The notes under the pieces are model-generated. The model was not told the DNA's origin, made no database searches, and saw only the letters and a list, made by a program, of their open reading frames with translations. A DNA stretch of 46,718 bases, from assembly GCA_028713495.1 (NCBI GenBank), contig JAQTOF010000002.1:1-46718 (forward strand). The letters run 5' to 3'. Positions 1 to 41,938 of the stretch are shown piece after piece. Origin of the DNA: Candidatus Iainarchaeum sp. GTDB taxonomy: Archaea; Micrarchaeota; Micrarchaeia; Anstonellales; Bilamarchaeaceae. A program made the translations under genes and the position numbers. Every line of letters starts with the position of its first letter. The stretch's first letter is position 1.

Positions 1-3000
1 TGAATATGCTGTTGGACATGTCCAGCACGAAGACACCGCTGTAGCTCTTGTTGACGTCCAGATCGCAGCTGTTGTTGTACATGATGTTGTCTGCCATGGT
101 GACGCCGTTGAAGCCCTGTATCCTGAGGCCGTAGCCGCCGTTGCTGAAGAGCCTGTTGGCGGTCAGGTTGATCGAGTAGTTGATTGTTGCGTCACCATAG
201 AGGTAGATAGCGTCGCCGCTGGTATTGTATATACTGTTGTTGGCCAGTGTGGTGTTGTAGGCGGTTTGGACGTGTATGGCACGGTTAGGCCAATTGAAGA
301 TGGTGTTGTTCGTCACGATGGTGCCGTTCGTCTGCGTGGTCAGCGTGATGCTGTAGTTGCTTGCCGTGGTGCCGCTGCCATCAATCGAGTTGTTGGCTAT
401 CGTGTTGTTGGTCGAGTACCGTAGGTATATCAGGCCTCGATAGATGTTGTTGCCGGAGAAGATGGTGTTGTTTGCGGTGTCCAGATAGAGGGCGTAGGGT
501 ATCGTTGTCGGGTTCGAGAACGTGCTGTTGGTTATCGTCGTGCCGTTCGACGTACCGATACTGATGGCATTGCTGGCGGAGGCGATGTCCGTTATCAGCA
601 GGCCGGAGATGGTGTTGTTGTTGGATGAGCTGCTGAGACTGATGAGCGTACCATTGACCATGCAGTTCGTCATGTTATTGCTGTTTGAACGGATGAGGAA
701 GAGCCCCCGTCCGCCGCTCCCGATAGTGAGCGACGTGTCGTTCAGGAGCGTGTTGAACGTGGAATCCGCTAATGTGAAGCCGGACTGGAAGGAGGTTGCA
801 CTGTTGCTATATACCGTGACGTTGGTGACGCTGGAGTAGTCGGCGTGATATAGATAGACGCCGGTCCCCGTGGTGCCGACGCTGTAGTTCCATATGCGCG
901 GGCAGTTCTGTATTGTTACGTTGTGGTAGGGGCTTGCGGCTGAGCCGTTCACAAAGATGGCCGTGGCGTTCACTGTGCCGAAGTTGTTGATTGAATAGCC
1001 GTTACAGTCATAGATGACATCGCTGGCCGTGATTTTCACGCAGACCTTGCCGCCGGCACCGAGTTCAGTGGCGTTATTCGGAGCGCCCACATAGTCGGCC
1101 CCCTGGATATAAGTGCCGCTGGAGGTTATTACCGGGCAGTTGTCGTTCTCCAGTATGCCATAGTCGGATGCAGGGTTCATGCCGGTGAGGGAAAGCTCGT
1201 GGTTGGTCGTGTCCGGGGTGCCGTTGAGCATTGTCCAGGTGCCGTTGTACTTCCACAGCTGGAACTTGGACTCGTTGTAGCCGCCTGCAGTGACTTCGTC
1301 ACCAGTCCAGCTCCAGACGATGCTGTCTATGGAGACCGTACTGCTGCCATTGGTGATGTTCACGAACTTCTGGGCGAAGCTGGGATACCCCGCTGGCAGG
1401 GCTGAGGAGTTCCTGGTCCAGTTGATGGAGTATATCTCCGCGTTGCTCGCGCCCAGACTGTCGTTTATGGACAGGTTGGTGTAGTTCTGCAGCGTGCCTG
1501 CCGGATTGAGGAACAGCGCGCGCGTCATATTGAGCGTCACCGCGCCGGTGCCATCAGCAGAGGCATAGACGTCGCCTTGGCTGTTGTTGAAGAAGATAGG
1601 ATCTATGAACGCAGCGGAAGCATTGTCCAGGTGCATGCCGTTGCCGGAGTTGTTGGCGGCTGTGATGTTGGTGAACGTGATGTTGACTGGCATGTAGCCC
1701 GCACCGGCGTAGGAAGAGACATGGATGCCATCACCGTTGCCTGTGAGTGTGGCATCGGTCACGCTGATGTTGTCCGAGCCGCCTATGTTAATGCCGTATT
1801 CCGTGTTGTTGAAGCCGGAGAGGTTGAGTATGACGCTGTTGGAACCGATCAGGACACCGTCGCTGTTATTGTACGCCGTGTTGTTCTCCATAGTGCTCTG
1901 GGACATCACGAATCCGTAGAGCCCGTTGTTGAAGGCGCTATTATTGACTATGAGACATCCGAGCTCTCCCTGGATGCCATAGTAACCATTGTTGTAGGCG
2001 AGATTGCCGGTCAGGTTGCTGGTCGGCGGGGAAGCGATACCGGCATTCGAGTTGTCATGGGCGGTGTTGTTGGTGAACACGAAGTATTGCGCCCAGTTGT
2101 TCATGCTGAACCCGTTAATATTGTCGTACGCCGTGTTGTTGGTGAGAGTGACCAGGATTATGTCCTTGTTTGGGGGGGGTGCACCGTCGGTGTCGAATCC
2201 GGCGCCATTGCCGCATGCGGTGTTGTTGATGAATGTTATGTTGCTTATCGGACCTGAGGATAGGGGGCCGCCGATGACGAATCCGGCGGCATTGCCGCAT
2301 GCTGTGTTGTTGACGAGCGTATGGTTACCTGCCTGCGTGCCAGTCAGTAGCCTGAACCCTGCACCGCTCGTGCCGTTGTTGTTGCTGGCGATGTTGTCGG
2401 CGATGTACCCGTCATGGGAGGCTGTTACCTGGAGGCCATCAGCGAAGTTGTCGCTGATATTATTCCCTATGACGCTGAAGTTGTACGACACGCCTAAGAT
2501 GTATAGGCCCGCGACCGTGGTGACACTGCCACCGTTATTGGTGATGGTGTTGTTGACGATTGAGAAATTGTGGCTTTTCAACGAGTATGCCATGCCGCCC
2601 TGATAGTTTCTGGTGGCTGTATTGTTGATGACGTTGGTGTGGTTGGAGACGTCGAAGTCGAAACCGATGGCGATGAGGCCCGTGTTGTTGTAGGCGATAT
2701 TGCTTATCACGTTGGTGTAGTCGCTTCCGAGCATGTAGAAGCCATTGGAACTGCAATTGGTGGCATTGTTGCTAGTCAGGTTGTTGTAGGGGCTGCTGAT
2801 GATACGGAAACCGTCGTCGCTCTGGCTGGCTAAATTAGCAGTGAGATTGTTGTTGCCGCCCCCTTCCACATAGATGCCATAGCCGCAGATGGTTGCGGTA
2901 TTTTCCACCACAGTATTGAGATTGCTGTTGAGCATGTAGATGCCGTAGCTGTCGAGGAAGCGGGTATTGCTGATATTATACGCACTATTATTGTATAACA

Positions 3001-6000
3001 TGCTGTCGTTGACCTCATTCAGATAGAAGCCTGCGACCGAGTTGTTGTACGCATTACTGCCATCTATCGTGACATTCACTGCCCTGAAGGCGTAGAAAGC
3101 GTAGTAATAGCTTTCGATGACATCAATATCCTGGATGGTGACATTGCCGGCAGGATTTGAGGAGGTACCGAAGACGCCGACGCCATAGGTGTAGTTGTTC
3201 TTGATCTGGCAGTTTTTCACAGTGACGTTGCTATTGGCTGATGCGTTGACGAATATGCCGTATGAGTTGTCAGTACCGTTGTTGGTGATGGTGTGGCCGT
3301 TGCAGTCCAGGCTCACATCCGGCGAAGCTACGACTATGCATGCCTTTGATAGCGTGGGCGCGGCGCTGAATGGCGCTCCGGTCGCGTCCGCTGAGAGCTG
3401 GTAGGCGCCAGGAGTATCTATCAGCAGGCAGTTTTCTGTGACATTGTTCTGTAGGATACCGTAATCTGATGCAGGATTCATGCCGGTGAGGCTGAGGGTG
3501 TTTGCTGAAGTGTCTGGAGTGCTATTGATCATCTCCCATTCCCCGGACATGTTGTACTTCCAGAGCTCGAACTTGGAATCGTCGTAGTAGGACTCTAGGG
3601 CGACGTCAGCATCCGTCCAATACCAGACTATGCTGTCTATGGAGACACCGGCCGTGAGATTGCTTATGTTCAAGAACTTCTGCTCGAATGAGAGGTAGTC
3701 GGTCGGCAGAGCCGACTCATTGCTGGTCCAGTTTATCGCGTAAGCTTCACTGGGAACCTCGAGAAGGTCAGTGAGGGAAAGGTTGGTGAAGTTCTGCGCG
3801 CTTCCGGCCCCGTCTTTGAACAGAACGTTGGTGAGGTAAAGAGTTACGTTTGCGCCGGTGCTGCGGTTGGCGACTAAAGAGTATTTGTTTCCGTATAATG
3901 TCGAGTCCACCAGACGGCTGCTGTTGCCCTTGAATGAGTAGAAGCCGTAATTGGAGTTGTTGTATATCGTGCAGGAAGTGAAATTGTTGTTGTTGACGTT
4001 CTGGAGGTGCACTCCGTGCCCGGCATTATCACGGATAGTGACATTCGTGAAGGAATTGCCTGTGGAGGCTGTGGACAACCATATGGCGCTTATGGAGGCG
4101 TTGGTGCTGTTATAGACCGTCTCATTGGCGGCTATAAGGTAGCTGGCAGCGGCCAGGACGATGCCGCTCTGGCTGCTGTGCCACACGTTGTTGGTCAGGT
4201 TGATATAAGAGCTGAAGGTTATCGCGAGAGCGTATTGCAGATTGTCGTAGGCCGTGTTGTTGTTGAGCCAGACGTCCTTGCTTATGTTAAGGAAAAAGCC
4301 GTGGTAAGAGCTATTGTAGACCGTGTTGTTCTGGATCAGGCTTCCGCCCGAAGCATTGACTGCCGCGATTCCGACGCCATATCCAGAGATGCTGGGGCAG
4401 TTTTTCACGGTGATATTCGTGTACGTGACGGCGGAGGAGCCGTTGATGAAGACCCCGATGGCATCCGCGGTCCCGTTATTCGTGATGGAATAGCCATTGC
4501 AGTCGAAGAGGACGTCCGAGGAAGCAATCATCACGCACGCGGCCGTCAGAGGAGGGACGCCTGAAATCGCGTTTGTGGCACCTACATAGTCGTTGTCCTG
4601 TAGGTATGCACCACTCTCGCTTAGGATCGGGCAGTTCTGATTCTCGAGTATGATGTAGTCCGAGGCGGGTTCCATATCGAAAAGGGTAAATGTGTGTGTG
4701 ACTGTATCAGGAGTGCCATTGAGCATGGTCCAGCCAGTGGAGTTGTACTTCCAAAGCTCGAATTTCGATTCGTCATATGTGGAACCGAGCTCATCAACGG
4801 TCCAGTGCCAGGTGATGCGGTCTATTGATGGCGTACCGGAAACCGTGGAGATATTCACGAATTTCTGGGTGAAAGAGACATAGCCGCTGGGGATAGATGA
4901 CGAGTTAAATGTCCAGTTGATTGTGTATTCCTGCCCTGATCCCGAGAGAGTGTCATTTATGTCCAAAACAGTGTAATTTTCTAAAGTGCCGGAGGGGTTG
5001 CGGAAAGTTGCATTGGTTATGTTAAGGACGGTGCCATATGCGCCAACGACATATACATCCCAGCCGTTGTTGTAGAGGGTATTGTTGAAAATGAGGCTTC
5101 GGTTGGCATTAATCACGCAGATTCCAGCGGTATTGTTATGGATAGTATTCTCCCGGATAGTGGTAGAACTGGCGTAGGCCCCATTTAATTCTATTCCTGC
5201 CCACGGCGTGGTAGCAAGCCCTCCCCTCCATCCATTATCGTAGATGGTGTTGTTGGTGAGGTTGTTGTATTGCCTCGTTATAATGAAACCCGAAATGCTG
5301 TTATTGTAGACTGTGTTGTTTTCAAAAACATTATAATCCGCGGGTGCGCCGCCGGCCGTTACAAAACCGTAGCCAGTAGCCGTATTTCCATTCCCGTGAA
5401 CCCGGTTCCCGTAAAACCGGCCCGAGGAGCCTGCAATGTAAACTCCATCTGCGTGGTTGTTGTATGAACTGCTGTTTATGAGGGAAATGTTATTGTCAGC
5501 AAGGTAGAATCCTGAGACATTATTGTTGTAAGAGCTGCAATTTGTGAAGCTGGCATCGAGATTGTTCCCGTTTCCGTAATAAACGACAAAACCATGGCCG
5601 TAATCCAAGGATGAATCGCCGTCTTGGCCGTAGGCGACATCGTCCTGGAACGTGTTGTAATCCGAGTAAGCGCTAACTAGGTATCCGTATTGGGTGTTGT
5701 TCGCGGCAGTGCAGTTGGTGATATTTATTCTTTTTGAACCGTGTATGAAAAACCCGCCATATGATAAGAATCCGATTTCGGTGTTTTTCATGGAAGTCGT
5801 GTTCTGGATTGTGACGTTTTCTGCGGATTCGATGTCAACTCCGATGTTATAGCCGTAAATCCTTGGGCAGTTCTTTATGGTGATGTTATGGTAGGCAAGT
5901 GTTGAATTGCCATCCGCATCAGTGCCGTTGACCATTATTCCTGCTGAAGGCGTATTGGCTCCGCTGTAAGTTATGTTGTAGCCGTTGCAGTCAAATACCA

Positions 6001-7735
6001 CGTCGGAAGAAGAGATGAGTATGCAGGAGTAGAGGGTAGCTGGGGGGACGGCGTAGTAATAAGCGCTGGATGCTGGATATGGGGCTCCGGCGACGTTTTG
6101 AGTGAGCGTATACGTTCCGGGATAGCTGATATTTGTGCACGCACTTACATCATGGATGTAATCGAATTCCGCATACCCTCCGGAATCGCCTAGGATCTCG
6201 AAGTCAAAAGTGTCTGTATCCGCTGAAAGGTTTTCCAGAGTTATGTAGGACCAGCCGCCTGAATCATTGAGAAGGCCGGAGGTTCCGAGAAGCGGGGAGG
6301 TTGTCCCGTTTGCATAGATGTTGAAGTAAACATTGTCCGCGCCTCCTTTCCTTGTATATACATCCACAACGCTTCCGTTGGTAAGGTTCTGCTCGAAAGT
6401 CGCACGGACGAAATCGCCGAGCGGAATCTGCTCAGACCAGTTGTCATCCTTATCTTTGACATATCCTGTGATATCAGAGATCAATCCGTAGCTGGAATCA
6501 AGATGCTCTACATAGCTGACGTTTATTTCACCTATTGAATAGTTCGAGAAACCGGAAACATCCATGGATGCCGTCCCGGTAGCCGGGTCGTAGATGAAAT
6601 TGGAGCATTCGCTTACGCATGGCTTACCGTTCCTCAACGGATAGGGCTGCCTGAGATGATTGAGACCGCGGAACTCAAGATGGGCAGAAGCATCGAACTG
6701 CGGATATGCGGCCGTATCGATGCCAAGCAGGTTCTGGGCGACTATGAATGCCTCAGAAAGATCAGCTTTTTGCACGCTGACCCTCAGCTCAGGATAGGTT
6801 ATGCTGCCCCCTTCGCCGTCGATCGTGAGGTTGGTGAAAAGGACATTGGTGAGGTTGCTGAAGAACGGACCGCCAGCCTTGCCATGTTCCCGCAGCTTGA
6901 GGAGGCCGGATGGTATCTCTTTGTCTGCCAGGTCCTTCAGCTTCAGGACTTTGCCTTCCTGGGCGCATTTGGAGGCTTCAAGGCCAGTGAGCTGACAGAA
7001 GCCAGGCACATCCTCAGGAGGTAAGTGCGTTTCATTGGGCCCCGTGAGAACATCAGGCCCGAAAGTCTCTGGTGGAGGTTCTGCCACATTTTCGGCAGGT
7101 TCGTCCTGGGGAACATCTTCAGGCTCCGGAGCTACATCGGTTTGCTCATCAGGTTGCTCTTCCCCAGGTGCATAGGTGCCTAAGCTGGCAGTGGTCATTA
7201 TCGTTATGGTCTCTCCATCTGCAGGGGCCCGCTCAAGTGCGATGATGGCCCATTCGCCCTCGCTTATCGAGATGATCGTGTAGAGGACATCCGAAGTAGT
7301 GCCGTCAGGAGCCACGAACTGTATGGCGAGGTTGGAGAAATCATATGCCAGCCCCTGCTGCCAGGATATCTCCAGGATGGAAGGGTCAGTATTTGATGTG
7401 AACTGTCCATCCACATCTGAAAGCACATTGAGGTCATACCCCCCTTCAGGGACAGATACGTTGACCAGGACCCACTGCCCTTCCTGCATGTCCACGATCT
7501 GGTAATCAGGATGGGAAGCCTCGCCGTTGGAGATTATCTCCAGGACCATGTCTGAGAAATCAGAGGCGAAACCCTCCATGTGGGTTATGTTTATGAGCTG
7601 TGAAACCGTGAAAAGGCTAAGGGTAATGAACATCAGGTTCATGGCAGGCGAAGGGCGAGAAGGCTGGCTACTTCGTGGTATGGGGATGAACCTGCTTGGA
7701 CTCATGGATGCACCGTCGCCTGTGCTAATCGGCAT
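1..7735 (-). CDS. Giant secreted surface protein, 3'-partial (>2,540 aa inside the window). It has an N-terminal domain, an acidic linker, and four right-handed parallel beta-helix (PbH1/NosD-like) units separated by a thrice-repeated ~135-aa module.
   Basis: Not in the supplied ORF track, because it has no stop inside the window. The reverse complement, read in the frame with codon first bases at positions = 1 mod 3, is stop-free from ATG 7735 down to position 2. In-frame alternative starts are ATG 7705 and ATG 7642 (MNLMFITLSLF...). The translation shows a hydrophobic N-terminus, a Pro/Glu-rich linker, repeated beta-helix rungs (NNT/NNS...G-x-Y/F) and four caps of the form SSDVxFDCNGYxI. 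It is paralogous to the N-terminus of 27677..31594. Confidence 0.85.
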   Translation of the reverse strand, partial: MPISTGDGASMSPSRFIPIPRSSQPSRPSPAMNLMFITLSLFTVSQLINITHMEGFASDFSDMVLEIISNGEASHPDYQIVDMQEGQWVLVNVSVPEGGYDLNVLSDVDGQFTSNTDPSILEISWQQGLAYDFSNLAIQFVAPDGTTSDVLYTIISISEGEWAIIALERAPADGETITIMTTASLGTYAPGEEQPDEQTDVAPEPEDVPQDEPAENVAEPPPETFGPDVLTGPNETHLPPEDVPGFCQLTGLEASKCAQEGKVLKLKDLADKEIPSGLLKLREHGKAGGPFFSNLTNVLFTNLTIDGEGGSITYPELRVSVQKADLSEAFIVAQNLLGIDTAAYPQFDASAHLEFRGLNHLRQPYPLRNGKPCVSECSNFIYDPATGTASMDVSGFSNYSIGEINVSYVEHLDSSYGLISDITGYVKDKDDNWSEQIPLGDFVRATFEQNLTNGSVVDVYTRKGGADNVYFNIYANGTTSPLLGTSGLLNDSGGWSYITLENLSADTDTFDFEILGDSGGYAEFDYIHDVSACTNISYPGTYTLTQNVAGAPYPASSAYYYAVPPATLYSCILISSSDVVFDCNGYNITYSGANTPSAGIMVNGTDADGNSTLAYHNITIKNCPRIYGYNIGVDIESAENVTIQNTTSMKNTEIGFLSYGGFFIHGSKRINITNCTAANNTQYGYLVSAYSDYNTFQDDVAYGQDGDSSLDYGHGFVVYYGNGNNLDASFTNCSSYNNNVSGFYLADNNISLINSSSYNNHADGVYIAGSSGRFYGNRVHGNGNTATGYGFVTAGGAPADYNVFENNTVYNNSISGFIITRQYNNLTNNTIYDNGWRGGLATTPWAGIELNGAYASSTTIRENTIHNNTAGICVINANRSLIFNNTLYNNGWDVYVVGAYGTVLNITNATFRNPSGTLENYTVLDINDTLSGSGQEYTINWTFNSSSIPSGYVSFTQKFVNISTVSGTPSIDRITWHWTVDELGSTYDESKFELWKYNSTGWTMLNGTPDTVTHTFTLFDMEPASDYIILENQNCPILSESGAYLQDNDYVGATNAISGVPPLTAACVMIASSDVLFDCNGYSITNNGTADAIGVFINGSSAVTYTNITVKNCPSISGYGVGIAAVNASGGSLIQNNTVYNSSYHGFFLNISKDVWLNNNTAYDNLQYALAITFSSYINLTNNVWHSSQSGIVLAAASYLIAANETVYNSTNASISAIWLSTASTGNSFTNVTIRDNAGHGVHLQNVNNNNFTSCTIYNNSNYGFYSFKGNSSRLVDSTLYGNKYSLVANRSTGANVTLYLTNVLFKDGAGSAQNFTNLSLTDLLEVPSEAYAINWTSNESALPTDYLSFEQKFLNISNLTAGVSIDSIVWYWTDADVALESYYDDSKFELWKYNMSGEWEMINSTPDTSANTLSLTGMNPASDYGILQNNVTENCLLIDTPGAYQLSADATGAPFSAAPTLSKACIVVASPDVSLDCNGHTITNNGTDNSYGIFVNASANSNVTVKNCQIKNNYTYGVGVFGTSSNPAGNVTIQDIDVIESYYYAFYAFRAVNVTIDGSNAYNNSVAGFYLNEVNDSMLYNNSAYNISNTRFLDSYGIYMLNSNLNTVVENTATICGYGIYVEGGGNNNLTANLASQSDDGFRIISSPYNNLTSNNATNCSSNGFYMLGSDYTNVISNIAYNNTGLIAIGFDFDVSNHTNVINNTATRNYQGGMAYSLKSHNFSIVNNTITNNGGSVTTVAGLYILGVSYNFSVIGNNISDNFADGLQVTASHDGYIADNIASNNNGTSGAGFRLLTGTQAGNHTLVNNTACGNAAGFVIGGPLSSGPISNITFINNTACGNGAGFDTDGAPPPNKDIILVTLTNNTAYDNINGFSMNNWAQYFVFTNNTAHDNSNAGIASPPTSNLTGNLAYNNGYYGIQGELGCLIVNNSAFNNGLYGFVMSQSTMENNTAYNNSDGVLIGSNSVILNLSGFNNTEYGINIGGSDNISVTDATLTGNGDGIHVSSYAGAGYMPVNITFTNITAANNSGNGMHLDNASAAFIDPIFFNNSQGDVYASADGTGAVTLNMTRALFLNPAGTLQNYTNLSINDSLGASNAEIYSINWTRNSSALPAGYPSFAQKFVNITNGSSTVSIDSIVWSWTGDEVTAGGYNESKFQLWKYNGTWTMLNGTPDTTNHELSLTGMNPASDYGILENDNCPVITSSGTYIQGADYVGAPNNATELGAGGKVCVKITASDVIYDCNGYSINNFGTVNATAIFVNGSAASPYHNVTIQNCPRIWNYSVGTTGTGVYLYHADYSSVTNVTVYSNSATSFQSGFTLADSTFNTLLNDTSLTIGSGGRGLFLIRSNSNNMTNCMVNGTLISLSSSSNNNTISGLLITDIASASNAISIGTSNGTTITNSTFSNPTTIPYALYLDTANNTIFSGNNIYRGLIYLRYSTNNTIANNSIDGSGTTASNYSITLTTQTNGTIVTNNTIFNWPNRAIHVQTAYNTTLANNSIYNTSGDAIYLYGDATINYSINLTANRLFSNGGYGLRIQGFNGVTMADNIMYNNSCDLDVNKSYSGVFVLDMSNSIF
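1133..1540 (-). repeat. Copy c of the ~135-aa inter-helix module in the giant ORF.
   Basis: Translation: ...LNMTRALFLNPAGTLQNYTNLSIND...INWTRNSSALPAGYPSFAQKFVNIT...SIDSIVWSWT...ESKFQLWKYNGTWTMLNGTPDT...SDYGILENDNCP. The boundaries are approximate. Confidence 0.75.
3426..3850 (-). repeat. Copy b of the ~135-aa inter-helix module in the giant ORF.
   Basis: Translation: ...LYLTNVLFKDGAGSAQNFTNLSLTD...INWTSNESALPTDYLSFEQKFLNIS...SIDSIVWYWT...DSKFELWKYNMSGEWEMINSTPDT...SDYGILQNNVTENC. The boundaries are approximate. Confidence 0.75.
4628..5030 (-). repeat. Copy a of the ~135-aa inter-helix module in the giant ORF.
   Basis: Translation: ...NITNATFRNPSGTLENYTVLDINDT...INWTFNSSSIPSGYVSFTQKFVNIS...SIDRITWHWT...ESKFELWKYNSTGWTMLNGTPDT...SDYIILENQNCP. 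The boundaries are approximate. Confidence 0.75.
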
Positions 7736-7765
7736 ACGCCGATAACGAATATATATCTTCCGCAT

Positions 7766-8788
7766 TCATTTCTTCGCTTTCGCCTCAGACTTCCACTTGC
7801 GGTAGATTACATACGCGATTATTGGTATGAGGATTAACAGCAAAATCCAGCATTGGAATTCTGGCTGGACGATTATCGTGACGATCTCCTCAGGCACGAT
7901 AGGCGGGGTCACATTTGTCGGAGTGACACCGCACTTCTCTATCCTGAAGACTTCTATGGTCGAACAGTTGCTCAAATCTTTGCATGACTGCTGGCGATAG
8001 CCATCCAAGCACGGCCCCCACTCGCCGCAATAAAGTACGATCTCGCACGTGACGTTCGTGATGTTTGGTGGCTGCGGAACGGTCACGTTGCTGACATTAT
8101 AATACGGGGTGTGTGTTCCACCCCCTCCTTCGCCCCCTCCAGGCGGCTCTGTCGGAGGCGGATTGCAGGCAAGATCTACGGTTAGATAGTAGCTGGTATT
8201 GCTGCCATTTGTCGGAAGCATGAACTGGAAATCGAATAACGAACCGTTGAAACCCGGCTGATCGCTCAAGACAGTCGTTATGAACACGAAATCGTCTGCC
8301 TGGTCTTTCAGGTATCCCATCCTGAAGATGTTCGGAGTGGGTGAATTGGTATATGCTGTCGGAACTCCGGTTATATCGCCGAAATTCGCGGTCGTGAAAG
8401 ACGTTGACAGCCCTAAGGTGGTTGTGCCGTTGTCGCCTGGTCTGTTTATGAAAAGGTCCAATGCTGTCAGATTGCCTCTTGAAAGCGCGGTTATGGCCGT
8501 AGACGAATTGGAGAATAGCAGATCAAGGTTTTTCACGCCATAGGTGCAGCTGGAAGAACCGGTGTTAATCGTGTAGCAGCTGATATTCCCTGGAACCGCA
8601 GTGATCGTGAGCGGCACTGCAGCGGCCGGAGAGGTCTGACCGCACACCCCGAACCAGAATGAGCTCTGGTTGCTGGTGACATTGAGGGCGGTTATGTTGC
8701 CTCCTTCAGTGTTAGCGGACTGGGCAAAGGCCAGGGCTGCCATCACGAAGAAAACAAGGAAAGAACGGGAGATGCTCATGTGAGTCAT
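7766..8788 (-). CDS. Secreted, C-terminally membrane-anchored surface protein, sequon-rich, with a small Cys/Trp module.
   Basis: In the ORF track. Signal peptide (SISRSFLVFFVMAALAFAQSA), many N-x-S/T sequons and a PPTEPPGGGEGGGG linker. Cys-rich block YCGEWGPCLDGYRQQSCKDLSNC...EKC, then a C-terminal TM helix plus a KWKSEAKAKK tail. GGAGG at 8789-8793 favours ATG 8779 as the true start. Shares the TEGGNI[TS]A[LV]NVT motif with 10585..11259. Confidence 0.8.
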   Translation of the reverse strand: MTHMSISRSFLVFFVMAALAFAQSANTEGGNITALNVTSNQSSFWFGVCGQTSPAAAVPLTITAVPGNISCYTINTGSSSCTYGVKNLDLLFSNSSTAITALSRGNLTALDLFINRPGDNGTTTLGLSTSFTTANFGDITGVPTAYTNSPTPNIFRMGYLKDQADDFVFITTVLSDQPGFNGSLFDFQFMLPTNGSNTSYYLTVDLACNPPPTEPPGGGEGGGGTHTPYYNVSNVTVPQPPNITNVTCEIVLYCGEWGPCLDGYRQQSCKDLSNCSTIEVFRIEKCGVTPTNVTPPIVPEEIVTIIVQPEFQCWILLLILIPIIAYVIYRKWKSEAKAKK

Positions 8789-8794
8789 CCTCCA

Positions 8795-10531
8795 TCATCT
8801 CTTTTTCTCCTTGCCTTTACGGCCCAGCATATAGTATGCCGCCACTGCCAAGAGCACCAGCAGGACTATCCCACCTAGGAGCAGGAGCAGAGGGAACTGC
8901 GTCTCCAGCGGCACGATGTAGGCTGCCTTCTTCATGAGGAAACCTTCCCTGCCGCCGTAGTCTACATACACTGTGACTTCCTTGTTGGCATCCAGGTCTG
9001 CCTGGCTGATCTCAAGCGGGAACTCTTCGACCATCATGGAGCCACGCTCAAGCGTCTTCGTGCCTGAGCTGCTTATGTTGGTCGGTACGCCACCGATGTT
9101 GAGGCTAAGCTTGGTGAAGAGATAGGCCGGACCGTTTCCAAGGTTCTGGAGGGTGACGAGCACGCTCTTCTTGTCGGCATCGTATTTGACATATTTGACT
9201 GTCACGTTGGAGGTGTCGGTGTAGCTCACACTCGTGAGCGGACCTTCTTTTGTGGTGTATTCTTCCAATGATTTCTTGGAGCTGCCATACTTGACTATGA
9301 CCGTGGCAGTCACTGAACCCTCAGAGACTCCCGAGAGATCCAGCGGGTATTCACTGCCTGCCTGTTCACCGCGCTCTATGAGCTTTGTTTCATTGCTGCC
9401 GAGCAATTTGTAGTCTTGCCCATTGACCTTTATGCGGACCTCGACAGCATAGTAGGCAGAGCCTTCGCCGATGTTGCCCACGCTAACCATGACCTTGTTG
9501 TTGTCCTTGTTGTAGATTATCTCTGTGACCTCAAGGCTGGGCTGGTATGCCGGCATGCTGAATGTGTCCAGCACAAGGACACTGGTGCCTGCGGACGGTA
9601 CGACCTGAGCGAACTTCACTGTTATGCCGAAGGTCTTGTTCAGACCCTCTGCCTTGAACTCATTCACCATCCGTTCGCGCATATCGTATATCGGCACGAC
9701 CAGATCATTGCCCACCAACATCACGCCGGTGAGCTTCCCATCCCGCACGTACTGCTTGATGAAGTCGTATGTTCCCTGGGGGACCAGCCGTCCTGTGAGC
9801 AGGATGGGCTGCTTGCCCTCTGCCATGCCTTCTTCTATGAATGTGCCGTCAACGACCAATGGCGATTTCAGCGAGAACTCGTCCATGGTCTTCTTCACCA
9901 TGATGATATTGTCTTCGTACTTATCTTCGCCTTTGCCCAAAATCTCTGGGTTGAATTCAGCGAGCTCGTCCTTGACTTCCTGATCAACGAGCCCGAAGAT
10001 GATTATCTTATCAGCATCCTTCACAGTCTCTTTTACAGAGGCGATGTTATTGCTGTTGGCAAGTATGACATATGATTTCGTGAGCGCGGCATAGGGTAGG
10101 ACTGATAACGCGCTATCCGAGTAGGATGAATCTACTATGATGAAGCTTGTCGCTCCGGATCTCTTGGCAAGGTCAAGGTTGGTTGCTGAAGCATCGGTTG
10201 ATGTGTAGACAGTGACTGTGTTGTTTTTGTTCTTTAGGTTGGATTCGACGAAACTGCTGATGGGGGTGCTTCCCTGGATGAGCAGGATGTCGTGATTTGA
10301 GCCCACCTTGGCAGCGAATACGTCAGCATTGCCGCCTGGGAGAGGCATGAATTTGACTGGGAGGCCCATGGCGTTGGCGTAGAAGATGCCTGAAAGAACA
10401 TCCCTGCCATCATTGGAATTTATGGCGACAAAATCCTCTGCGTAAGCCGTCAAGATGAGCGCAAGCATGAATAACGCGATTATCGGAAGCCTCATACACC
10501 TCTCCTCCCTTTTGTTGCTTTTTTCGCGCAA
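8795..10531 (-). CDS. Secreted, membrane-anchored surface protein with CWB2-like alpha/beta modules followed by Ig/CARDB-like beta modules.
   Basis: In the ORF track. The probable start is ATG 10495 (MRLPIIALFMLALILTAYA signal peptide). The N-terminal half has repeated modules reminiscent of cell-wall-binding repeat 2 (e.g. DVLSGIFYANAMGLPV, SDSALSVLPYAALTKSYVIL). The C-terminal half is beta-rich (EVTEIIYNKDNNKVMVSVGNIGEGSAYY). It ends in a TM helix plus RKGKEKKR. The domain names are recollection, not a search. Confidence 0.75.
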   Translation of the reverse strand: MREKSNKREERCMRLPIIALFMLALILTAYAEDFVAINSNDGRDVLSGIFYANAMGLPVKFMPLPGGNADVFAAKVGSNHDILLIQGSTPISSFVESNLKNKNNTVTVYTSTDASATNLDLAKRSGATSFIIVDSSYSDSALSVLPYAALTKSYVILANSNNIASVKETVKDADKIIIFGLVDQEVKDELAEFNPEILGKGEDKYEDNIIMVKKTMDEFSLKSPLVVDGTFIEEGMAEGKQPILLTGRLVPQGTYDFIKQYVRDGKLTGVMLVGNDLVVPIYDMRERMVNEFKAEGLNKTFGITVKFAQVVPSAGTSVLVLDTFSMPAYQPSLEVTEIIYNKDNNKVMVSVGNIGEGSAYYAVEVRIKVNGQDYKLLGSNETKLIERGEQAGSEYPLDLSGVSEGSVTATVIVKYGSSKKSLEEYTTKEGPLTSVSYTDTSNVTVKYVKYDADKKSVLVTLQNLGNGPAYLFTKLSLNIGGVPTNISSSGTKTLERGSMMVEEFPLEISQADLDANKEVTVYVDYGGREGFLMKKAAYIVPLETQFPLLLLLGGIVLLVLLAVAAYYMLGRKGKEKKR

Positions 10532-10584
10532 AGCCGCGCAAGGACGAAATGAAAGAAAAATGAAAAAAGAAAGGATGTACTACT

Positions 10585-11259
10585 TCAGTTCAGCTCTGCA
10601 TAGAAGTAATACGTCTCTATACCGCCAGGAGTGGTCGGAACCATGACCTGGTAGTTTGCAGTAGAGTCGTCATAAGCTGCTTTGGAATCCATGTTCACAC
10701 AGAACGCGAAGTTATCTTCAGTTGTGTTCCCAGCGTCCTTAACAAGACATGTGTCCCATCCACCAGCAGTCGTGACATTCGCGGTGTCGCTGATTGCAGT
10801 GATGCCATCTAAGGTGAGGTCGCAGTCTGCTGTTGTGAAGGTGTTTGCAGCGTTGTCGGATGCAGATCCGAGGCCGAACACAGTGTCGACATCTGGCACA
10901 AAAGTAAGCCCGGCAGTAACTGCGCTGCCCCAGGCATATGTGCTGTCGGTAGACAGGCATACCTCGCCGTCACCACCTGTCCAGACCCATGAGTAAACCG
11001 CGTCGGCTGCGCTGTCCTGCAACACGATCGTACCAGTCACATTACCGAAGTATGCAGCCCACCTGTCGGTGAGTGACATACCAGTGACGTTAACCGCGCT
11101 TATGTTGCCGCCTTCAGTGACATCTGAGCCACTAGAAGAATAGTTGCTCCACCTGGCTTTATCTTGAACCAGAGTAACAGTCGCACCGCTGATTGCCATT
11201 ACCAATCCAGCTCCTAAGAGCATGACCCAAAACAGGCCAAATATTGTTTTTGTATTCAT
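10585..11259 (-). CDS. Small secreted protein, first gene of the surface cluster.
   Basis: In the ORF track. AGGTGAT Shine-Dalgarno about 7 nt upstream of ATG 11259. Signal peptide (IFGLFWVMLLGAGLVMAISGA). Carries a TEGGNISAVNVT motif shared with 7766..8788. There is no C-terminal anchor. Confidence 0.8.
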   Translation of the reverse strand: MNTKTIFGLFWVMLLGAGLVMAISGATVTLVQDKARWSNYSSSGSDVTEGGNISAVNVTGMSLTDRWAAYFGNVTGTIVLQDSAADAVYSWVWTGGDGEVCLSTDSTYAWGSAVTAGLTFVPDVDTVFGLGSASDNAANTFTTADCDLTLDGITAISDTANVTTAGGWDTCLVKDAGNTTEDNFAFCVNMDSKAAYDDSTANYQVMVPTTPGGIETYYFYAELN

Positions 11260-11395
11260 TGGGTATCACCTGGTCGCTAAAGACCTGGTCTGTAAGATAA
11301 CAATATACTAACCAGACCTTGAACTGGCTACACCTGTAATATTTATAAACATGCGCCCGTTTTTCTGACGAAAGCGCAGACGTGAAAATAAAACG

Positions 11396-12157
11396 TCATC
11401 TCTCCACGGTCTTGCTCTTCCCATTCGGCAATATCTCAAGCAGCGCGTCAGGGTGGACGTCATACCGCTTCGCGAGCGATTTGGCGATCGCCCCTTTGTC
11501 TTTTCCTGATTTGGACGGGACCAGAACGAGCGCGTTTTTTATGGTGGTTTTTGAAATGGACGGGACAAGCACGAGCAGGCTTTTCTCATCCTTCCCTATG
11601 CGCAATTCCAGCTTCGTGTCCCTGAACCAGATCCTTTCTCCGGAAATGGCGAAAGCGCCGGTCGGGATGAACCCGCCGGAAACATGTTTTGATAATTGAG
11701 CTTTCTTCACTGCATAGACATCCACAGACGCGTTCGCGTTTATCCATGCCTTTGAGAAAGATGCAGCAAACTGCGCTGCCTCTTTCAATTCTTCTTCTTT
11801 TGCTTCAATCCCATCCTTCAATACCACTGCTGAAGCGCCCTGTATGTCCGCATGGAAGAACAAATCCTTATCCTCCATGTGTTTCGCGAATATCTGGTCA
11901 TTCTGCTGCGCATTACGCCCGCCGATCATCAGATGGCCGGCAGAAGTGAAGCAGGAATGGAACTTCTCGTACCATTCCTTCTGCCTTTTGGTGCGTACCT
12001 CTTTCTTCTTCCCTTTCTTGGCGTTCCCGATCTCCTTTTTCGTCTCTTCTATGGCTTTCTCCACGCCTGCGATCTTCTCCCTGCTCTCCTTTGCCAGCTC
12101 GTAGTAGTGGGCAGCATTCTCGTGGACGGATTTCTCGTAGAAGAGCTTGAGGTCCAT
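11396..12157 (-). CDS. NFACT-R (DUF814) domain protein, a truncated RqcH/NEMF/FbpA-like ribosome quality-control factor.
   Basis: In the ORF track. Lys/Glu coiled-coil segment, then WYEKFH...GHLMIGGRNAQQNDQIFAKHMEDKDLFFHADIQGASAVVLKDG, which matches the NFACT-R/DUF814 core. No NFACT-N domain is encoded. Confidence 0.75.
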   Translation of the reverse strand: MDLKLFYEKSVHENAAHYYELAKESREKIAGVEKAIEETKKEIGNAKKGKKKEVRTKRQKEWYEKFHSCFTSAGHLMIGGRNAQQNDQIFAKHMEDKDLFFHADIQGASAVVLKDGIEAKEEELKEAAQFAASFSKAWINANASVDVYAVKKAQLSKHVSGGFIPTGAFAISGERIWFRDTKLELRIGKDEKSLLVLVPSISKTTIKNALVLVPSKSGKDKGAIAKSLAKRYDVHPDALLEILPNGKSKTVER

Positions 12158-12186
12158 GTGATTATAAGAGACGGCATGAAATATAA

Positions 12187-13164
12187 TTGCAGCTGATGAA
12201 AAGCAGTGTGATGAGAGTCCGTTCCATAGATGCTTTCCGAGGCCTTGCGATAGTGCTGATGGTGTTCTTCACGCTCACCTTCGTGTTCAGCAGGAGCCTG
12301 CCGGACCTGATCACGCATAATGTCGCTGGTTCCTTGCATCTCGGCGATTTCGTTTTGCCTTTATTCCTTTTCGCCAGCGGCATGTCGCTTGTCTTCTTCC
12401 ATGAGAAACGGAAGGGGAACAAGGCGCGGGAGTATATCCTGGATGTCATTGAACGGTTCGGGAAGCTGGTGCTGATATCCTTCTTCATATCGCCATTCTC
12501 TGCTGGCGGGTTCCTGCAGATGGATGAGGTGATGCTGAGCGCCGTATTGTTCCTTGTTTGTATATTGCTGATAGGACTGCCTGACACATTGCTTGTGCTG
12601 ATCGCTTTGGCTGTTTTCGGATTGTATTTCGCGCTTTCTGACCTTTCATTATTGCCGGATTTCAGCGCTTATTATCTTGGAGGATATCCTGCTGCGATCT
12701 TCTATCTTCCCGTGATGCTTGGCGGAGTGATCGCAGGGAAACGGGTGATGGAAAGAAAGGAGCTGACCACTGCGCTTTTAGGCGCAGGCATGTTGTTCGT
12801 GGTTCTGCTGTTGATTGTGCCGCCATACAAAAGCGATGCCACCCCATCGTTCATGGCGCTTTCTATCTTGCTTTCGCTGGTGGTTTTTGTTTTGGTTGAA
12901 ACTGCACTGAAACAATTGAACAAGAAACGCGAGGGTGTGTTGGAGTATTTGGGAAGGCAGCCGATAAGATATTGGGTGCTGATGTTCGTGATGGTGAAGA
13001 TACCGGTCGAGGTCTATGCGTTTTCTGCAGGATTGGAACTGCCTTTGGAATTAGGATGGACGAATGCTGTGCTCATCGCAGTGGTATGCGTACCGGTGCT
13101 TTATGCAGTCTCCAAAGGGATCGACCTTATTTTGCTAAAGCCTCAGCCTAAGAAGAAGCGCTGA
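12187..13164 (+). CDS. Heparan-alpha-glucosaminide N-acetyltransferase-like (DUF1624) membrane acyltransferase.
   Basis: In the ORF track. The N-terminal RVRSIDAFRGLAIVLMVFF signature is followed by multiple TM helices. The likely real start is ATG 12196 or ATG 12211; a TATA-like aaatataat at ~12179-12187 lies about 28 nt upstream of 12211. Confidence 0.7.
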   Translation: MQLMKSSVMRVRSIDAFRGLAIVLMVFFTLTFVFSRSLPDLITHNVAGSLHLGDFVLPLFLFASGMSLVFFHEKRKGNKAREYILDVIERFGKLVLISFFISPFSAGGFLQMDEVMLSAVLFLVCILLIGLPDTLLVLIALAVFGLYFALSDLSLLPDFSAYYLGGYPAAIFYLPVMLGGVIAGKRVMERKELTTALLGAGMLFVVLLLIVPPYKSDATPSFMALSILLSLVVFVLVETALKQLNKKREGVLEYLGRQPIRYWVLMFVMVKIPVEVYAFSAGLELPLELGWTNAVLIAVVCVPVLYAVSKGIDLILLKPQPKKKR

Positions 13165-13824
13165 TAATCCCATCGCAGGGATGTCAGTGGAAAGCCTGAC
13201 CGAGCTGCCTTTGCTGTCAGTCCATTCAACAGGGATTTCAGTGACCTTCAGACCGTTCTTCTGAGCCCGGATAAGAAGCTCGCTATCCCAGAACCAGTGC
13301 TTGTCTTCCACTTCATTGAGGAGATGCAGGATTTTCGACTTCCTGAATGCCTTGAATCCGCACTGGTGGTCATGGATAGAGGTCCTGAAAAGCGCCCTCA
13401 GCATGAGATTGTAGCCCCTGCTGAAGAATTCCCTGAGGAAGCTGCGGCTGTGCACCTTTGAACCAGGTGCAAGGCGCGAGCCCGTGGATATGTCTGCGCC
13501 GTTCTCCACTTCTCTGATCAGCTCTTTCAGATGCTTCAGATCAGTGGCCAAATCCGCGTCCATATATACTACTATGTCCCCTTTCGCGGCTTTGATCGCG
13601 TTATTAAGGGCAAGGCCGCGGCCGAGTTTTTTTTCCGAAGCCAGGAGGCGTATCTTCGCTGATGCTAGCTTTCCTGCGATCTGCCTGGTGTTGTCTGTGC
13701 TGCCGTCTTCTGCGAGGATTATCTCGTAATCAAGGCCGAGGCTGTCCGCAGCCTTCCTGATTTTCTGGAAGTTGGCTGACAGGGCAGCGGCTTCGTTATG
13801 AAGAGGGATTATGAACGATATCAT
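13135..13824 (-). CDS. Family 2 glycosyltransferase.
   Basis: In the ORF track. GT2 motifs ISFIIPLHNE, ILAEDGSTDNT and YMDADLATD. Overlaps the convergent gene 12187..13164 by 30 nt. Confidence 0.85.
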   Translation of the reverse strand: MISFIIPLHNEAAALSANFQKIRKAADSLGLDYEIILAEDGSTDNTRQIAGKLASAKIRLLASEKKLGRGLALNNAIKAAKGDIVVYMDADLATDLKHLKELIREVENGADISTGSRLAPGSKVHSRSFLREFFSRGYNLMLRALFRTSIHDHQCGFKAFRKSKILHLLNEVEDKHWFWDSELLIRAQKNGLKVTEIPVEWTDSKGSSVRLSTDIPAMGLSALLLRLRL

Positions 13825-13826
13825 AC

Positions 13827-14456
13827 GTGGAATGTATCAGTCAATCAGGCGTTTTTAATATGTTGCGTCCGCGTATCCATCTTATGCATAAGAAGAATCC
13901 GATATCTATGCTTTTCCTCAAAGCCCGCCATAGGAAGACCGCAGGGCTGCTGGATGGCGTCGTTCCCAAAAGCGTCCTTGATGTCGGTTGCGATGATGGC
14001 CGTTTCCTCAGGATGCTGGCCGAGGCATACCCCAAAGCGACCCTCTACGGCTGTGATTCCGATCCTGAGGCGGCGAGGGAAGCGCGCGATGCCTGCCCTT
14101 CAGCTGCCATAGTGCAAGGGGACTTCATGAAGCTGGATTTCAAGCCCGTGGACGTGGTGGTGATGCTCGAGGTGCTTGAGCATGCATCGGAACCGGTCCC
14201 CATGCTGAAGAAGGCGGCGGCCCTGGTAGGGAAGAAAGGCCGCGTGCTTGTGAGCATACCGAGACCTGAGCTGCTGAGGTGGCGCCTGGTATGGAGCTTA
14301 TGGTCGAATACCTTCGGGAGGAGGTGGCATGGCCAGCACAGGCACCTAACCGAAGCCGAACTGACCGAGGCGGCTGCCCGGTGCGGCCTCAAAGTGGAAA
14401 AAAGGCAGCGTTTCTTTTTAGGATGCATATCCATGACCCTGTTCAGACAGATGTAA
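13827..14456 (+). CDS. Class I SAM-dependent methyltransferase.
   Basis: In the ORF track. SAM-binding motif VLDVGCDDGRF and VVVMLEVLEH. In-frame alternative starts are ATG 13860 and ATG 13884; a TATA-like tttttaatat at ~13852-13861 lies upstream. Confidence 0.8.
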   Translation: MECISQSGVFNMLRPRIHLMHKKNPISMLFLKARHRKTAGLLDGVVPKSVLDVGCDDGRFLRMLAEAYPKATLYGCDSDPEAAREARDACPSAAIVQGDFMKLDFKPVDVVVMLEVLEHASEPVPMLKKAAALVGKKGRVLVSIPRPELLRWRLVWSLWSNTFGRRWHGQHRHLTEAELTEAAARCGLKVEKRQRFFLGCISMTLFRQM

Positions 14457-14468
14457 GGTGCGGCCCAC

Positions 14469-16331: not shown

Positions 16332-17003
16332 TCAGGTGAAGCGGAGCCTGATGATGTCCAGGACATAGGTGAATATCTCGCCAGCGCCTAATTTCGTCCG
16401 GCCTGAATGGCGGTCGCTGAAGACATAGGGCACTTCGCTTATCCTGATGCGAGGGTTGTCCGCGAGGATATTGAGCAGGATTTTGTACCCGCGGGTGCGG
16501 AACTTGGTCTTCTTGAATACCTCTTTCCGGATGGCGAAAAAGCCGCTCATCGGATCAGAGACGGATACGCCTAGCATGGCACGCGCAAGGAAGTCGGCGC
16601 CGATAGATATGATTTTCCTGTGGAACGGCCAGGACGCCACCCCACCGCCTTCAAGCATCCTGCTGCCGATGACAAGATCGTGGTTATCCAGCGCAGACAC
16701 CAATGCAGGGACTTTTTCCGGCGGATGGGAAATGTCGCTGTCCATGATCACCAGATATCCGCCTTTGGCAGCTGCGGCACCTGCCACTATGGCAGCGGTC
16801 AGCCCCTGCTTTTTCTTCCGCTTCAGCAGGCGGACACAGCGATATGTTTTCATCGCCTCTTCTACGCAGGATGCGGTGCCATCAGGAGAATTGTCATCCA
16901 CGAATATCACCTCATGCTCTTTGTTGAGGCTCTTCTCAAGCCGCGACAGCAGAGGGATGATATTGTCACGCTCGTTGTACGTCGGGATGATGATCGATAG
17001 CAC
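16332..17003 (-). CDS. Polyprenol/dolichol-phosphate mannose synthase-like GT2 (Dpm1-like).
   Basis: In the ORF track. LSIIIPTYNERDNI, VIFVDDNSPDGT and IMDSDISHPPEKV (a DADLSHHP-type motif). The GTG start at 17003 directly abuts the stop of 17004..18479. Confidence 0.85.
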   Translation of the reverse strand: MLSIIIPTYNERDNIIPLLSRLEKSLNKEHEVIFVDDNSPDGTASCVEEAMKTYRCVRLLKRKKKQGLTAAIVAGAAAAKGGYLVIMDSDISHPPEKVPALVSALDNHDLVIGSRMLEGGGVASWPFHRKIISIGADFLARAMLGVSVSDPMSGFFAIRKEVFKKTKFRTRGYKILLNILADNPRIRISEVPYVFSDRHSGRTKLGAGEIFTYVLDIIRLRFT

Positions 17004-38410: not shown

Positions 38411-38422
38411 TCACGAGGGATC

Positions 38423-41149: not shown

Positions 41150-41938
41150 ATGAAGACCATATCCGTTTTGGCCCTGATCCTTGTATTGCTTGGTGCCGGT
41201 TGCATCCAGACGCCCTCAGTGCCTCCTGGTTATGAGGTCAAGGATTACTGCGAAAAAGACAGCGACTGCGTGCGGCTGGACAAGTGCTGCGACTGCGGCC
41301 TCGGAGAATACGTGAACACCTATAACCAGCAGAATCCTGAATGCACCGGCCCGCAGTGCCTCTGCTCAATCATGCTTTCCAAGGGTGTTTGCCAGGAAAA
41401 CAAATGCGTTGCGGTGGAACAGAATCCCGGACCCGAAGTCACATTGAATTTCACGCCAGGGCAGGGGAAATGCGGAGAAGAGGTGGCTCCAGTGCGCATC
41501 GACACTGAGAATGGGATGACCTTCAATGGCTCAGTGGGCCTGATCAGCCCTTGCCACCGCGCGAAGGGAGAACTGGTCAGTAAAGACGGCGTCTATATCC
41601 TTAACATCACGACATCTGCTATACCGGGTGTGGCGACATGCATCAACTGCGCTGGCACCATACCCTGGGAAGCCAGCATAAGCGGGTATTTCGGAAGCGT
41701 GGATGTCTATTATAACGAAAGGAAGGTATTCCCGACCAAAGCTAAGTTCTGCGGATGGTCCACCAACGGCTCGTGCAGCGCAGATGAGGATTGCACAAGC
41801 GGCGGATGCTCGAATCAGGTATGCCAGTCTGAGAATGAGGAGCCGGTGATCACCACGTGCGAGTACACTGAATGCTACAACGCTGCTGCATTCGGGGTCA
41901 GCTGCGGCTGCGTCAGCGGGCAGTGCCAATGGAGATAA
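41150..41938 (+). CDS. Secreted lipoprotein-like protein with cysteine-rich N- and C-terminal caps.
   Basis: In the ORF track. Signal peptide with a lipobox-like LLGAGC. Cys-rich blocks are YCEKDSDCVRLDKCCDCG...C and FCGWSTNGSCSADEDCTSGGCSNQVC...CGCVSGQC. A TATA box lies 25 nt upstream. Confidence 0.75.
   Translation: MKTISVLALILVLLGAGCIQTPSVPPGYEVKDYCEKDSDCVRLDKCCDCGLGEYVNTYNQQNPECTGPQCLCSIMLSKGVCQENKCVAVEQNPGPEVTLNFTPGQGKCGEEVAPVRIDTENGMTFNGSVGLISPCHRAKGELVSKDGVYILNITTSAIPGVATCINCAGTIPWEASISGYFGSVDVYYNERKVFPTKAKFCGWSTNGSCSADEDCTSGGCSNQVCQSENEEPVITTCEYTECYNAAAFGVSCGCVSGQCQWR

Follow-up and report, generated by a model that had tools for sequence, protein, structure and literature searches.

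The contig studied here, JAQTOF010000002.1 (46,718 bp, analysed over its whole length and referred to below as the window), carries at one end a giant minus-strand open reading frame (ORF; positions 1..7735) whose product, judging from its sequence, is probably a secreted, N-glycosylated surface fibre of a Micrarchaeota cell. We regard the case that this fibre acts in cell contact or adhesion as evenly balanced. The three genes directly upstream of it form a conserved partner cluster that recurs beside related giants, and one C-terminal domain (CTD), found in two of these genes and in several relatives of the giant, offers a possible route by which such fibres might be fixed to the cell.

An earlier note on this DNA had proposed a minus-strand ORF open from ATG 7735 to the window edge, with ATGs 7705 and 7642 as alternative starts. 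Computational translation from 7735 to 2 bears this out, giving 2,578 sense codons and no in-frame stop; all three ATGs are in frame, as are those at 7765 and 7633, and the nearest in-frame stop upstream is TGA 7768-7766. The public gene call (P0001; 2,568 amino acids, aa) starts at 7705, and residues are numbered here from ATG 7735. The ORF is missing from the ORF list, as the same note had remarked, because ORFs running off an end go unlisted. Since the window is the entire contig, the gene runs off the contig end and its 3' end cannot be read here; the protein is incomplete, with more than 2,578 residues, and exact look-ups of P0001 and of the 340-aa protein encoded just upstream gave no match for extending the 3' end. 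Within positions 1-7800, the longest internal direct DNA repeats measure 65 nt (69-72% identity), the most similar pair reaches 89% identity over just 37 nt, the repeats as a whole are 60-89% identical, and no tandem arrays were found. Hence, there is no sign of the collapsed or chimeric repeats about which the earlier note had been cautious, and the modules of the giant are old, diverged duplications.

The four parallel beta-helix units described in the earlier note are all recovered, as right-handed helices, by hidden Markov models (HMMs). The whole giant matches Pfam PF13229 Beta_helix at 280.9 bits (3e-84; gathering cut-off 25.9 bits) and NCBIfam TIGR03804 at 69.9 bits (cut-off 19.45), and each unit passes the same Pfam cut-off when taken separately. 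These are unit 1 (aa 571-900; minus strand, 5036..6025; 79.4 bits; cap SSDVVFDCNGY), unit 2 (aa 1067-1295; minus strand, 3851..4537; 70.9 bits; cap SSDVLFDCNGY), unit 3, the longest at ~600 aa (aa 1466-2065; minus strand, 1541..3340; 133.4 bits; cap SPDVSLDCNGH), and unit 4, which is cut by the contig end (aa 2232-2578; minus strand, 2..1042; 67.6 bits; cap ASDVIYDCNGY). The cap motif is shared by all four units in the context first described, S-[SP]-D-V-x-[FLY]-D-C-N-G-[YH], with the DCNG codons in the expected places at 5992-5981, 4504-4493, 3307-3296 and 1009-998. Each cap is accompanied by a set of four Cys (533/571/583/623, 1035/1067/1079/1113, 1436/1466/1478/1509 and 2200/2232/2244/2278) whose spacings are nearly fixed (38/12/40, 32/12/34, 30/12/31 and 32/12/34 residues), a conservation that is compatible with extracellular disulfides.

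Successive helices are separated by copies of a second module, the inter-helix domain D, which constitutes the ~125-aa core of a larger block. D1, with the lead-in to the next cap, spans aa 901-1066 (minus strand, 4538..5035; D HMM at aa 907-1033), D2 spans aa 1296-1465 (minus strand, 3341..3850; D HMM at aa 1302-1432) and D3 spans aa 2066-2231 (minus strand, 1043..1540; D HMM at aa 2071-2198). The block consisting of helix end, D and next cap is 48-62% identical between copies, and D itself matches no Pfam family. An AlphaFold2 (AF2) model of the junction between helix 1 and D1 presents helix coils followed by a beta-sandwich (predicted local distance difference test, pLDDT, 65-89), with the next cap lying outside the model. 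A ZU5/FIIND fold was considered for D and set aside, as the best PDB matches for the junction model are weak (E 1.6e-3, template modelling (TM) score below 0.5); a fold search of the viral library BFVD with the same model gave nothing convincing. Sequence searches of the PDB with the whole giant, its N-terminal domain, helix units 1-3 and the CTD profile returned no usable match. The impression that the protein is saturated with N-x-S/T sequons also stands: there are 146 of them (5.7 per 100 aa), compared with 60 +/- 6.6 in composition-preserving shuffles.

The hydrophobic N-terminus mentioned in the earlier note corresponds to a moderately hydrophobic segment, MNLMFITLSLFTVSQLI (aa 32-48; minus strand, 7592..7642; read from the sequence), which follows an Arg-containing stretch and would be either a signal peptide or an N-terminal anchor. 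The complete N-termini of the giant's relatives are typical signal peptides. Between this segment and the first globular region there are a weak internal repeat (aa 47-91 and 120-165) and an acidic Pro/Glu/Asp linker, previously placed at ~7070-7200 and located here at aa 188-232 (minus strand, 7040..7171), in which 24 of 45 residues are Pro, Glu or Asp (10 P, 9 E and 5 D).

Beyond the linker, the earlier note had seen one domain of ~330 aa that it could not name. The region (aa ~245-532) is indeed covered by no Pfam model, but it is not a single domain: alignment with the three homologues found first divides it into two halves with different distributions. Sub-domain A (aa ~245-400; minus strand, 6536..7003), with Cys pairs 247/257 and 373/377, is confined to Micrarchaeota relatives (P0002, P0003/L002, L001, P0005 and P0006); neither Pfam nor the PDB has a match for it, and its AF2 model is of low confidence. 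Sub-domain B (aa ~401-532; minus strand, 6140..6535), delimited by alignment, AF2 and profile searches, is a predicted jelly-roll beta-sandwich, and aa 400-531 of the giant match its profile, A-E-H-L-D ... W-S ... D-F-V-R-x-T-F-E ... F-D ... F-D-x-I-x-D. This second half also occurs without sub-domain A in a Woesearchaeota protein.

When 1.84 billion representatives were searched with a profile of the N-terminal domain, 1,953 proteins were retrieved at E<=1e-3, of which 1,452 also pass E<=1e-10; in nearly all of them the match is confined to the sub-domain B part of the profile. Carriers of sub-domain B are mostly 1,000-5,300 aa long; a set of 151 retrieved proteins (the listed top matches together with the earlier homologues) has a median length of 1,761 aa and includes 26 proteins of more than 3,000 aa. 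In species-representative genomes, sub-domain B was found in 43 loci (among them L003-L043), nearly all of them DPANN, within host ORFs of 738-4,252 aa, and almost every DPANN lineage sampled has it. The labels of these loci include Woese-, Pace-, Nano-, Aenigm- and Micrarchaeota and Altiarchaeales, along with one Thermoplasmatota and several 'Methanosarcinales'. Beta_helix is also present in 7 of 21 sampled members and Laminin_G_3 in 6 of 21, and sub-domain B itself lacks a Pfam model. In the AF2 model of the N-terminal domain, sub-domain B is the only confident part (pLDDT ~70-95), and it weakly resembles the jelly rolls of carbohydrate-binding module (CBM) families 4/6/29/32/61 and of F5/8-C domains (Foldseek E ~1e-3, TM score 0.45-0.57); no sequence match to carbohydrate-binding modules was obtained. 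In the members from outside Micrarchaeota, sub-domain B is preceded by a conserved region with the consensus ...D-Y-x-E-W-x-x-P-H-L-S-N-Q-T-F...

The architecture of the giant recurs in other proteins and is not a one-off. We define a family of cap-helix-D proteins by a cap, [SD]-x-[DN]-V-x-[FLY]-[DS]-C-x-G-[YHF] with flanking Cys, followed by PbH1 coils, and by a D domain with the pattern Y-x-I-N-W ... S-I-D-x-I-x-W-x-W ... T-P-D ... S-D-Y-G-I; the giant fits this definition with four caps and three D copies. Scanning metagenomes with the last 513 aa of the giant produced 18 loci with ORFs that repeat the cap-helix-D module, all at 34-60% identity and none of them an orthologue. For example, L046 encodes at least 4,401 aa with seven caps and six D domains, and L053 at least 3,888 aa with six caps and eight D domains. 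Of 214 collected proteins, 21 contain D, and the highest number of copies in one protein is eight. The closest relatives of the giant come from a Micrarchaeota bin (L001; 54% identity over the N-terminal domain) and a Micrarchaeia metagenome-assembled genome (L002/P0003). In its two nearest homologues, P0002 and P0003, the same N-terminal domain and beta-helices are accompanied by three Laminin_G_3/pentaxin domains.

Members of the family end in one of two ways. Transmembrane-type C-termini, consisting of a transmembrane helix and a Lys-rich tail, are found in L045, L049, L054, L058 and L060 and in a paralogue within the window (27677-31594). CTD-type C-termini, of ~215 aa and ending Y-[YF]-x-x-E-L-x-COOH, are found in P0002, the L044 gene upstream of P0002, L047, L051, L053 and L055. 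The window paralogue (27677-31594, minus strand) is complete at 1,305 aa and comprises a signal peptide, a cap (SSDVVFDCQGF) at aa ~54, Beta_helix and CarboxypepD_reg/Big_6 matches, a C-terminal transmembrane helix and a Lys-rich tail ...AVLYWRSQGGKKAKPPEKKGKK; over the last ~350 aa it shares 51% identity with L049 and 43% with L045, and its sequon density is 1.5 per 100 aa versus 5.7 in the giant. In L044, P0002 (3,543 aa, 1286-11917) lies directly downstream of the other CTD-ending member (2-1213, ...DIYVELI), and therefore CTD-type giants can be encoded in tandem.

The genes directly upstream of the giant are on the same strand, tightly spaced, and all encode exported proteins. Farthest upstream, a 224-aa gene (minus strand, 10585..11259) encodes a signal peptide and a free-standing CTD, ending ...ETYYFYAELN; without the signal peptide, this protein matches the final 209 aa of P0002, a complete homologue, along its whole length (30% identity, E 2e-24). 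It is followed by a 578-aa gene (minus strand, 8795..10531) whose product has a signal peptide, a C-terminal transmembrane helix and a Lys-rich tail, and which has homologues in L052 (57% identity), L051 (32%) and L055 (28%). A cell-wall-binding CWB2 assignment for the 578-aa protein (Pfam, 27.9 bits) was dismissed as unreliable, being weak and absent in the three homologues. Next to the giant, a 340-aa gene (minus strand, 7766..8788), characterised with hhalign and HMMs, encodes a signal peptide, a domain homologous to the CTD, a Pro-rich stretch, a Cys-rich module, a transmembrane helix and a Lys-rich tail. In a profile-profile comparison (hhalign), the 340-aa family matches the CTD family over 167 columns (98.4% probability, E 9.4e-15), and HMM matches between the two families are reciprocal. 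The 340-aa ORF and the giant ORF lie in the same frame (a 1-in-3 chance), split by the single TGA 7768-7766 with ATG 7765 abutting it; readthrough or fusion of the one into the other was rejected because the 340-aa protein has a normal C-terminus, with a transmembrane helix followed by a Lys-rich tail, and because the giant starts with a hydrophobic region of its own.

Homologues of all three partner genes occur beside family giants in L055 and L051. In L052, there are clear homologues of the 224- and 578-aa genes and a weaker match to the 340-aa gene (25% identity), with a flanking NFACT gene, and in L047 a giant is immediately followed by a free CTD gene. The order and orientation of the genes vary from locus to locus. 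Every locus in which a free or anchored CTD gene was found has a giant that either terminates in a CTD or is truncated short of its C-terminus, and the five loci with transmembrane-type giants yielded no such gene, in a small sample with short flanks. The two closest genome loci (L001 and L002) show no synteny of neighbouring genes with the window. A split or frameshifted NFACT gene at 11396-12587 was considered as well and rejected, the adjacent space being taken by a plus-strand multi-pass membrane protein.

The CTD, which has no Pfam family and no PDB sequence match, is thus used in three ways: free (224 aa), membrane-anchored (340 aa) and fused at the C-terminus of six complete relatives. 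Because free and anchored CTD genes are present in the operon of the giant, the giant is predicted to be CTD-type. We tentatively propose that the CTD represents an undescribed archaeal surface-display system, in which free, anchored and fused forms would co-assemble, for example by hetero-oligomerization or strand exchange, and thereby tether giant adhesins that lack a transmembrane segment to the Micrarchaeota cell surface; at present we lean against rather than towards this proposal. Such a system would be analogous in function to bacterial sorting and docking modules and would be unrelated to PGF-CTERM/archaeosortase or to any Pfam family.

A coil of a beta-helix contains about 23 residues and rises 0.48 nm. 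The ~1,500 helix residues of the giant would thus form at least ~65 coils and a rod of at least ~30 nm before other domains are counted, so that the four rods and their D spacers may make up a stiff stalk tens of nanometres in length. Micrarchaeota possess a surface layer (S-layer) as well as N-glycosylation (10.1101/2021.04.28.441871). Such a stalk would be long enough to cross the S-layer and to project the N-terminal jelly roll, the CBM-like sub-domain B, past it at the distal tip, where it may bind glycans of the host or of a partner cell. From the conserved neighbourhood and the distribution of the CTD, the missing C-terminus of the giant is predicted to be a CTD of ~215 aa, through which the fibre would attach to the 340-aa protein, itself membrane-anchored and carrying the same domain, and so be tethered to the cell, with the free 224-aa CTD protein as a third partner or filler subunit. 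This specific docking step is conceivable but doubtful in our estimate.

Several considerations weigh against the picture of a CTD-tethered, glycan-binding, glycosylated fibre. The C-terminus of the giant is cut off, which makes the tether a prediction, and the association of the gene cluster draws on about six loci with short flanks. If the hydrophobic segment at aa 32-48 were an uncleaved N-terminal anchor, the polarity would be reversed, so that the N-terminal domain would sit close to the cell and the C-terminus would form the tip. The resemblance of sub-domain B to CBMs is weak, and the model was built on 4 sequences only. Finally, the N-N-[ST] turn of the helix repeat would supply part of the sequon excess, and not all sites need be glycosylated.

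Some of the same evidence can be read in a different way, namely that the giant is an S-layer-associated or sheath-like part of the cell's own envelope that binds no host, with the 224-, 340- and 578-aa proteins as co-assembling subunits. Consistent with this, the gene is tightly clustered with three glycoprotein-like genes that run in the same direction and encode secreted or membrane-anchored proteins, and a domain that exists free, anchored and fused is a typical trait of self-assembling structures. Moreover, beta-helix domains in archaeal surface proteins, including S-layer-associated ones, have been known since Jing et al. 2002, according to the account in PMC5498576. However, the S-layer protein described for Micrarchaeota, that of Ca. 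Micrarchaeum harzensis, is of the PF05123 type (10.1101/2021.04.28.441871), a family for which Pfam gives no match in the giant or its three partners. Within the family, the number of modules and the presence of additional LamG/pentaxin domains also differ greatly, and orthologues of the giant are just 35-54% identical between Micrarchaeota; this variability fits interaction proteins better than a core lattice. We consider an own-envelope role unlikely.

It is equally unlikely, in our judgement, that the helices form a depolymerase array of polysaccharide lyases or hydrolases, eroding the glycosylated envelope of the host to permit cytoplasmic contact. The right-handed parallel beta-helix is the classic fold of phage tailspikes and pectate lyases, and a CBM-like N-terminal domain would suit a carbohydrate-active enzyme. 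In addition, the pectin-lyase-like surface proteins of Nanobdella have been proposed to degrade host walls (10.1101/2023.10.27.564410). The giant, however, has only generic Beta_helix and NosD matches and no match to a catalytic beta-helix family (such as pectate lyase, GH28 or pectinesterase) at Pfam E<=0.01, and phmmer with units 1-3 finds no solved beta-helix enzyme even at E<=5. The junction model likewise has no convincing tailspike match in the PDB or BFVD, and four helices of unequal size, joined by conserved spacers, resemble a stalk more than four separate enzymes.

An artefact (a frame open by chance, a pseudogene, or a repeat that was mis-assembled or collapsed) is the weakest alternative and highly improbable, for even though the gene lies at a contig end and assemblies often break at repetitive genes, the chance of 2,578 stop-free codons is ~e^-124 by our own arithmetic, all four helix units pass Pfam thresholds, homologues are present in independent assemblies, and no DNA repeat exceeds 65 nt or 89% identity.

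The reading of the giant as a contact or adhesion fibre can be set beside several known systems. Giant, beta-helix and LamG surface proteins of DPANN archaea have been proposed to act in host contact (PMC10266531; 10.1101/2023.10.27.564410; PMC5498576), and, in line with these proposals, it is reasonable to regard the giant as a candidate adhesin or cell-cell contact factor. The beta-helix 'pectin-lyase-like' surface proteins of Nanobdella, which have 36-52 sequons (10.1101/2023.10.27.564410), are similar: they too are surface proteins of a DPANN archaeon that combine a parallel beta-helix with an export signal, accessory beta-sandwiches and dozens of sequons, and they too have a proposed role at the symbiont-host interface. 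Compared by description, they differ in having 908-1,320 aa, one helix and Ig-like folds, whereas the giant has more than 2,578 aa, four helices, D spacers, the A/B domain and partner genes. The SPEARE and membrane-anchored extracellular giants of Nanohaloarchaeota (5,385-9,409 aa, with giant surface proteins of 8,880-9,409 aa; PMC10266531) also belong to a DPANN ectosymbiont with a tiny genome and have an N-terminal signal and a proposed role towards the host. They differ in their Ig/FN3-like arrays and VirB4/TraG-like ATPase domain; no sequence relationship with the giant was seen, and neither Ig/FN3 arrays nor an ATPase domain were found in aa 1-2578 of the giant, where Pfam finds Beta_helix and NosD only. 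Within the same phylum, the Mia14 Micrarchaeon shows an expansion of LamG-type jellyroll proteins, with four surface proteins occupying ~2.5% of its genome (PMC5498576). The giant's homologues P0002 and P0003 share Laminin_G_3/pentaxin domains with this group, whereas the giant has no LamG match in its available part.

Two further comparisons concern the fold. The bacterial beta-helical adhesins (pertactin-type autotransporter passengers, TpsA/FHA, pneumococcal PfbA, PMC3718772, and SRRP binding regions, PMC5866549) likewise have a rigid right-handed beta-helix that projects or binds, but they belong to another domain of life, are secreted and anchored through type V barrels or sortases, and have no detected sequence similarity to the giant. 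This likeness would thus be an analogy of mechanism and not one of membership. As for the NosD match, the giant shares PbH1 repeats with that family and is matched by Pfam NosD at 2.6e-48, but differs in size and in its multi-domain architecture. NosD is the periplasmic beta-helix protein of NosDFY nitrous-oxide reductase maturation. An assignment of the giant as NosD was rejected, since TIGR04247 NosD_copper_fam scores 42 bits against a cut-off of 300 and the Pfam match is at the level of repeats only; Pfam scans of 20 neighbouring ORFs found no nos genes (nosZ/nosF/nosY) or ABC-transporter partners.

The remainder of the window points to the lineage of the organism. The earlier note had taken the DNA to be archaeal, and CarB, marker genes and a tRNA narrow this to Micrarchaeota, a DPANN lineage. 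We assign the genome to Micrarchaeota because of its CarB matches, its archaeal markers and the fact that the closest homologues of the giant are in Micrarchaeota genomes. The best matches to CarB are metagenome proteins at 93% and 89% identity, and the organism-named matches, at 64-81% identity, are all labelled Candidatus Micrarchaeota, Micrarchaeia, Bilamarchaeum or 'ainarchaeum'. None of the GTDB representative genomes belongs to this species. Archaeal markers include a ribosomal protein P0 with the archaeal/eukaryotic insertion domain and a protein with a geranylgeranyl-reductase domain. A 102-nt tRNA (42015-42116, plus strand) was found by Rfam (54.5 bits) and missed by ARAGORN, and its length suggests an archaeal intron. 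At 37481-39988 (plus strand), an IF-2B-family gene adjoins a nucleoside/AMP-phosphorylase-like gene, a pair that also counts among the archaeal markers. The pair is probably a ribose-1,5-bisphosphate isomerase and an AMP phosphorylase, which represent two steps of archaeal AMP salvage; no RuBisCO was found among the window ORFs scanned.

Elsewhere in the window, a GT2 glycosyltransferase (13135-13824, minus strand) adjoins two multi-pass membrane proteins without a Pfam match. The first (14469-16331, plus strand) has 620 aa, ~10 hydrophobic segments and the C-terminus ...IIVYKIDAD; the second (17004-18479, minus strand) has 491 aa, ~7 hydrophobic segments and the similar C-terminus ...IIIYKVD, as well as a D-E-A-L-Y motif after its first hydrophobic segment that is reminiscent of GT-C glycosyltransferases. 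Together, these three genes (13135-18479) may be part of a protein-glycosylation machinery. Two further exported or membrane proteins, both Cys-rich, are likewise without a Pfam match: one of 560 aa (31711-33393, plus strand) with an N-terminal transmembrane segment and the C-terminus ...SCPAGCSAGACYMP, and one of 262 aa (41150-41938, plus strand) with a lipoprotein-like N-terminus, ...LLGAGCIQ.

Giant surface proteins of DPANN archaea are a class that is already recognised, and the protein described here is one of them. New here are a modular design of tandem helix-D units, a conserved four-gene cluster with three-way use of the CTD, and three domain families for which databases have no model (sub-domain B, with ~1,950 clusters, D and the CTD). 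Micrarchaeota genomes are roughly 1 Mb (Mia14, PMC5498576), and at a minimum of 7.7 kb the giant gene takes up close to 1% of a genome of that size. We would like to emphasize that the weight of the finding rests mainly on the lead provided by the CTD and partner genes and on the large sub-domain B family, and not on the size of the ORF. DPANN such as Micrarchaeota live attached to host archaea. The locus yields a hypothesis in which a conserved four-gene cluster would serve to fix fibres lacking a transmembrane segment to the cell. If this hypothesis does not hold, the giant stays one well-annotated member of the known class of DPANN giant surface proteins; if it does, it would provide handles with which to find and classify host-contact proteins across DPANN metagenomes, as well as candidates for structural and binding work.

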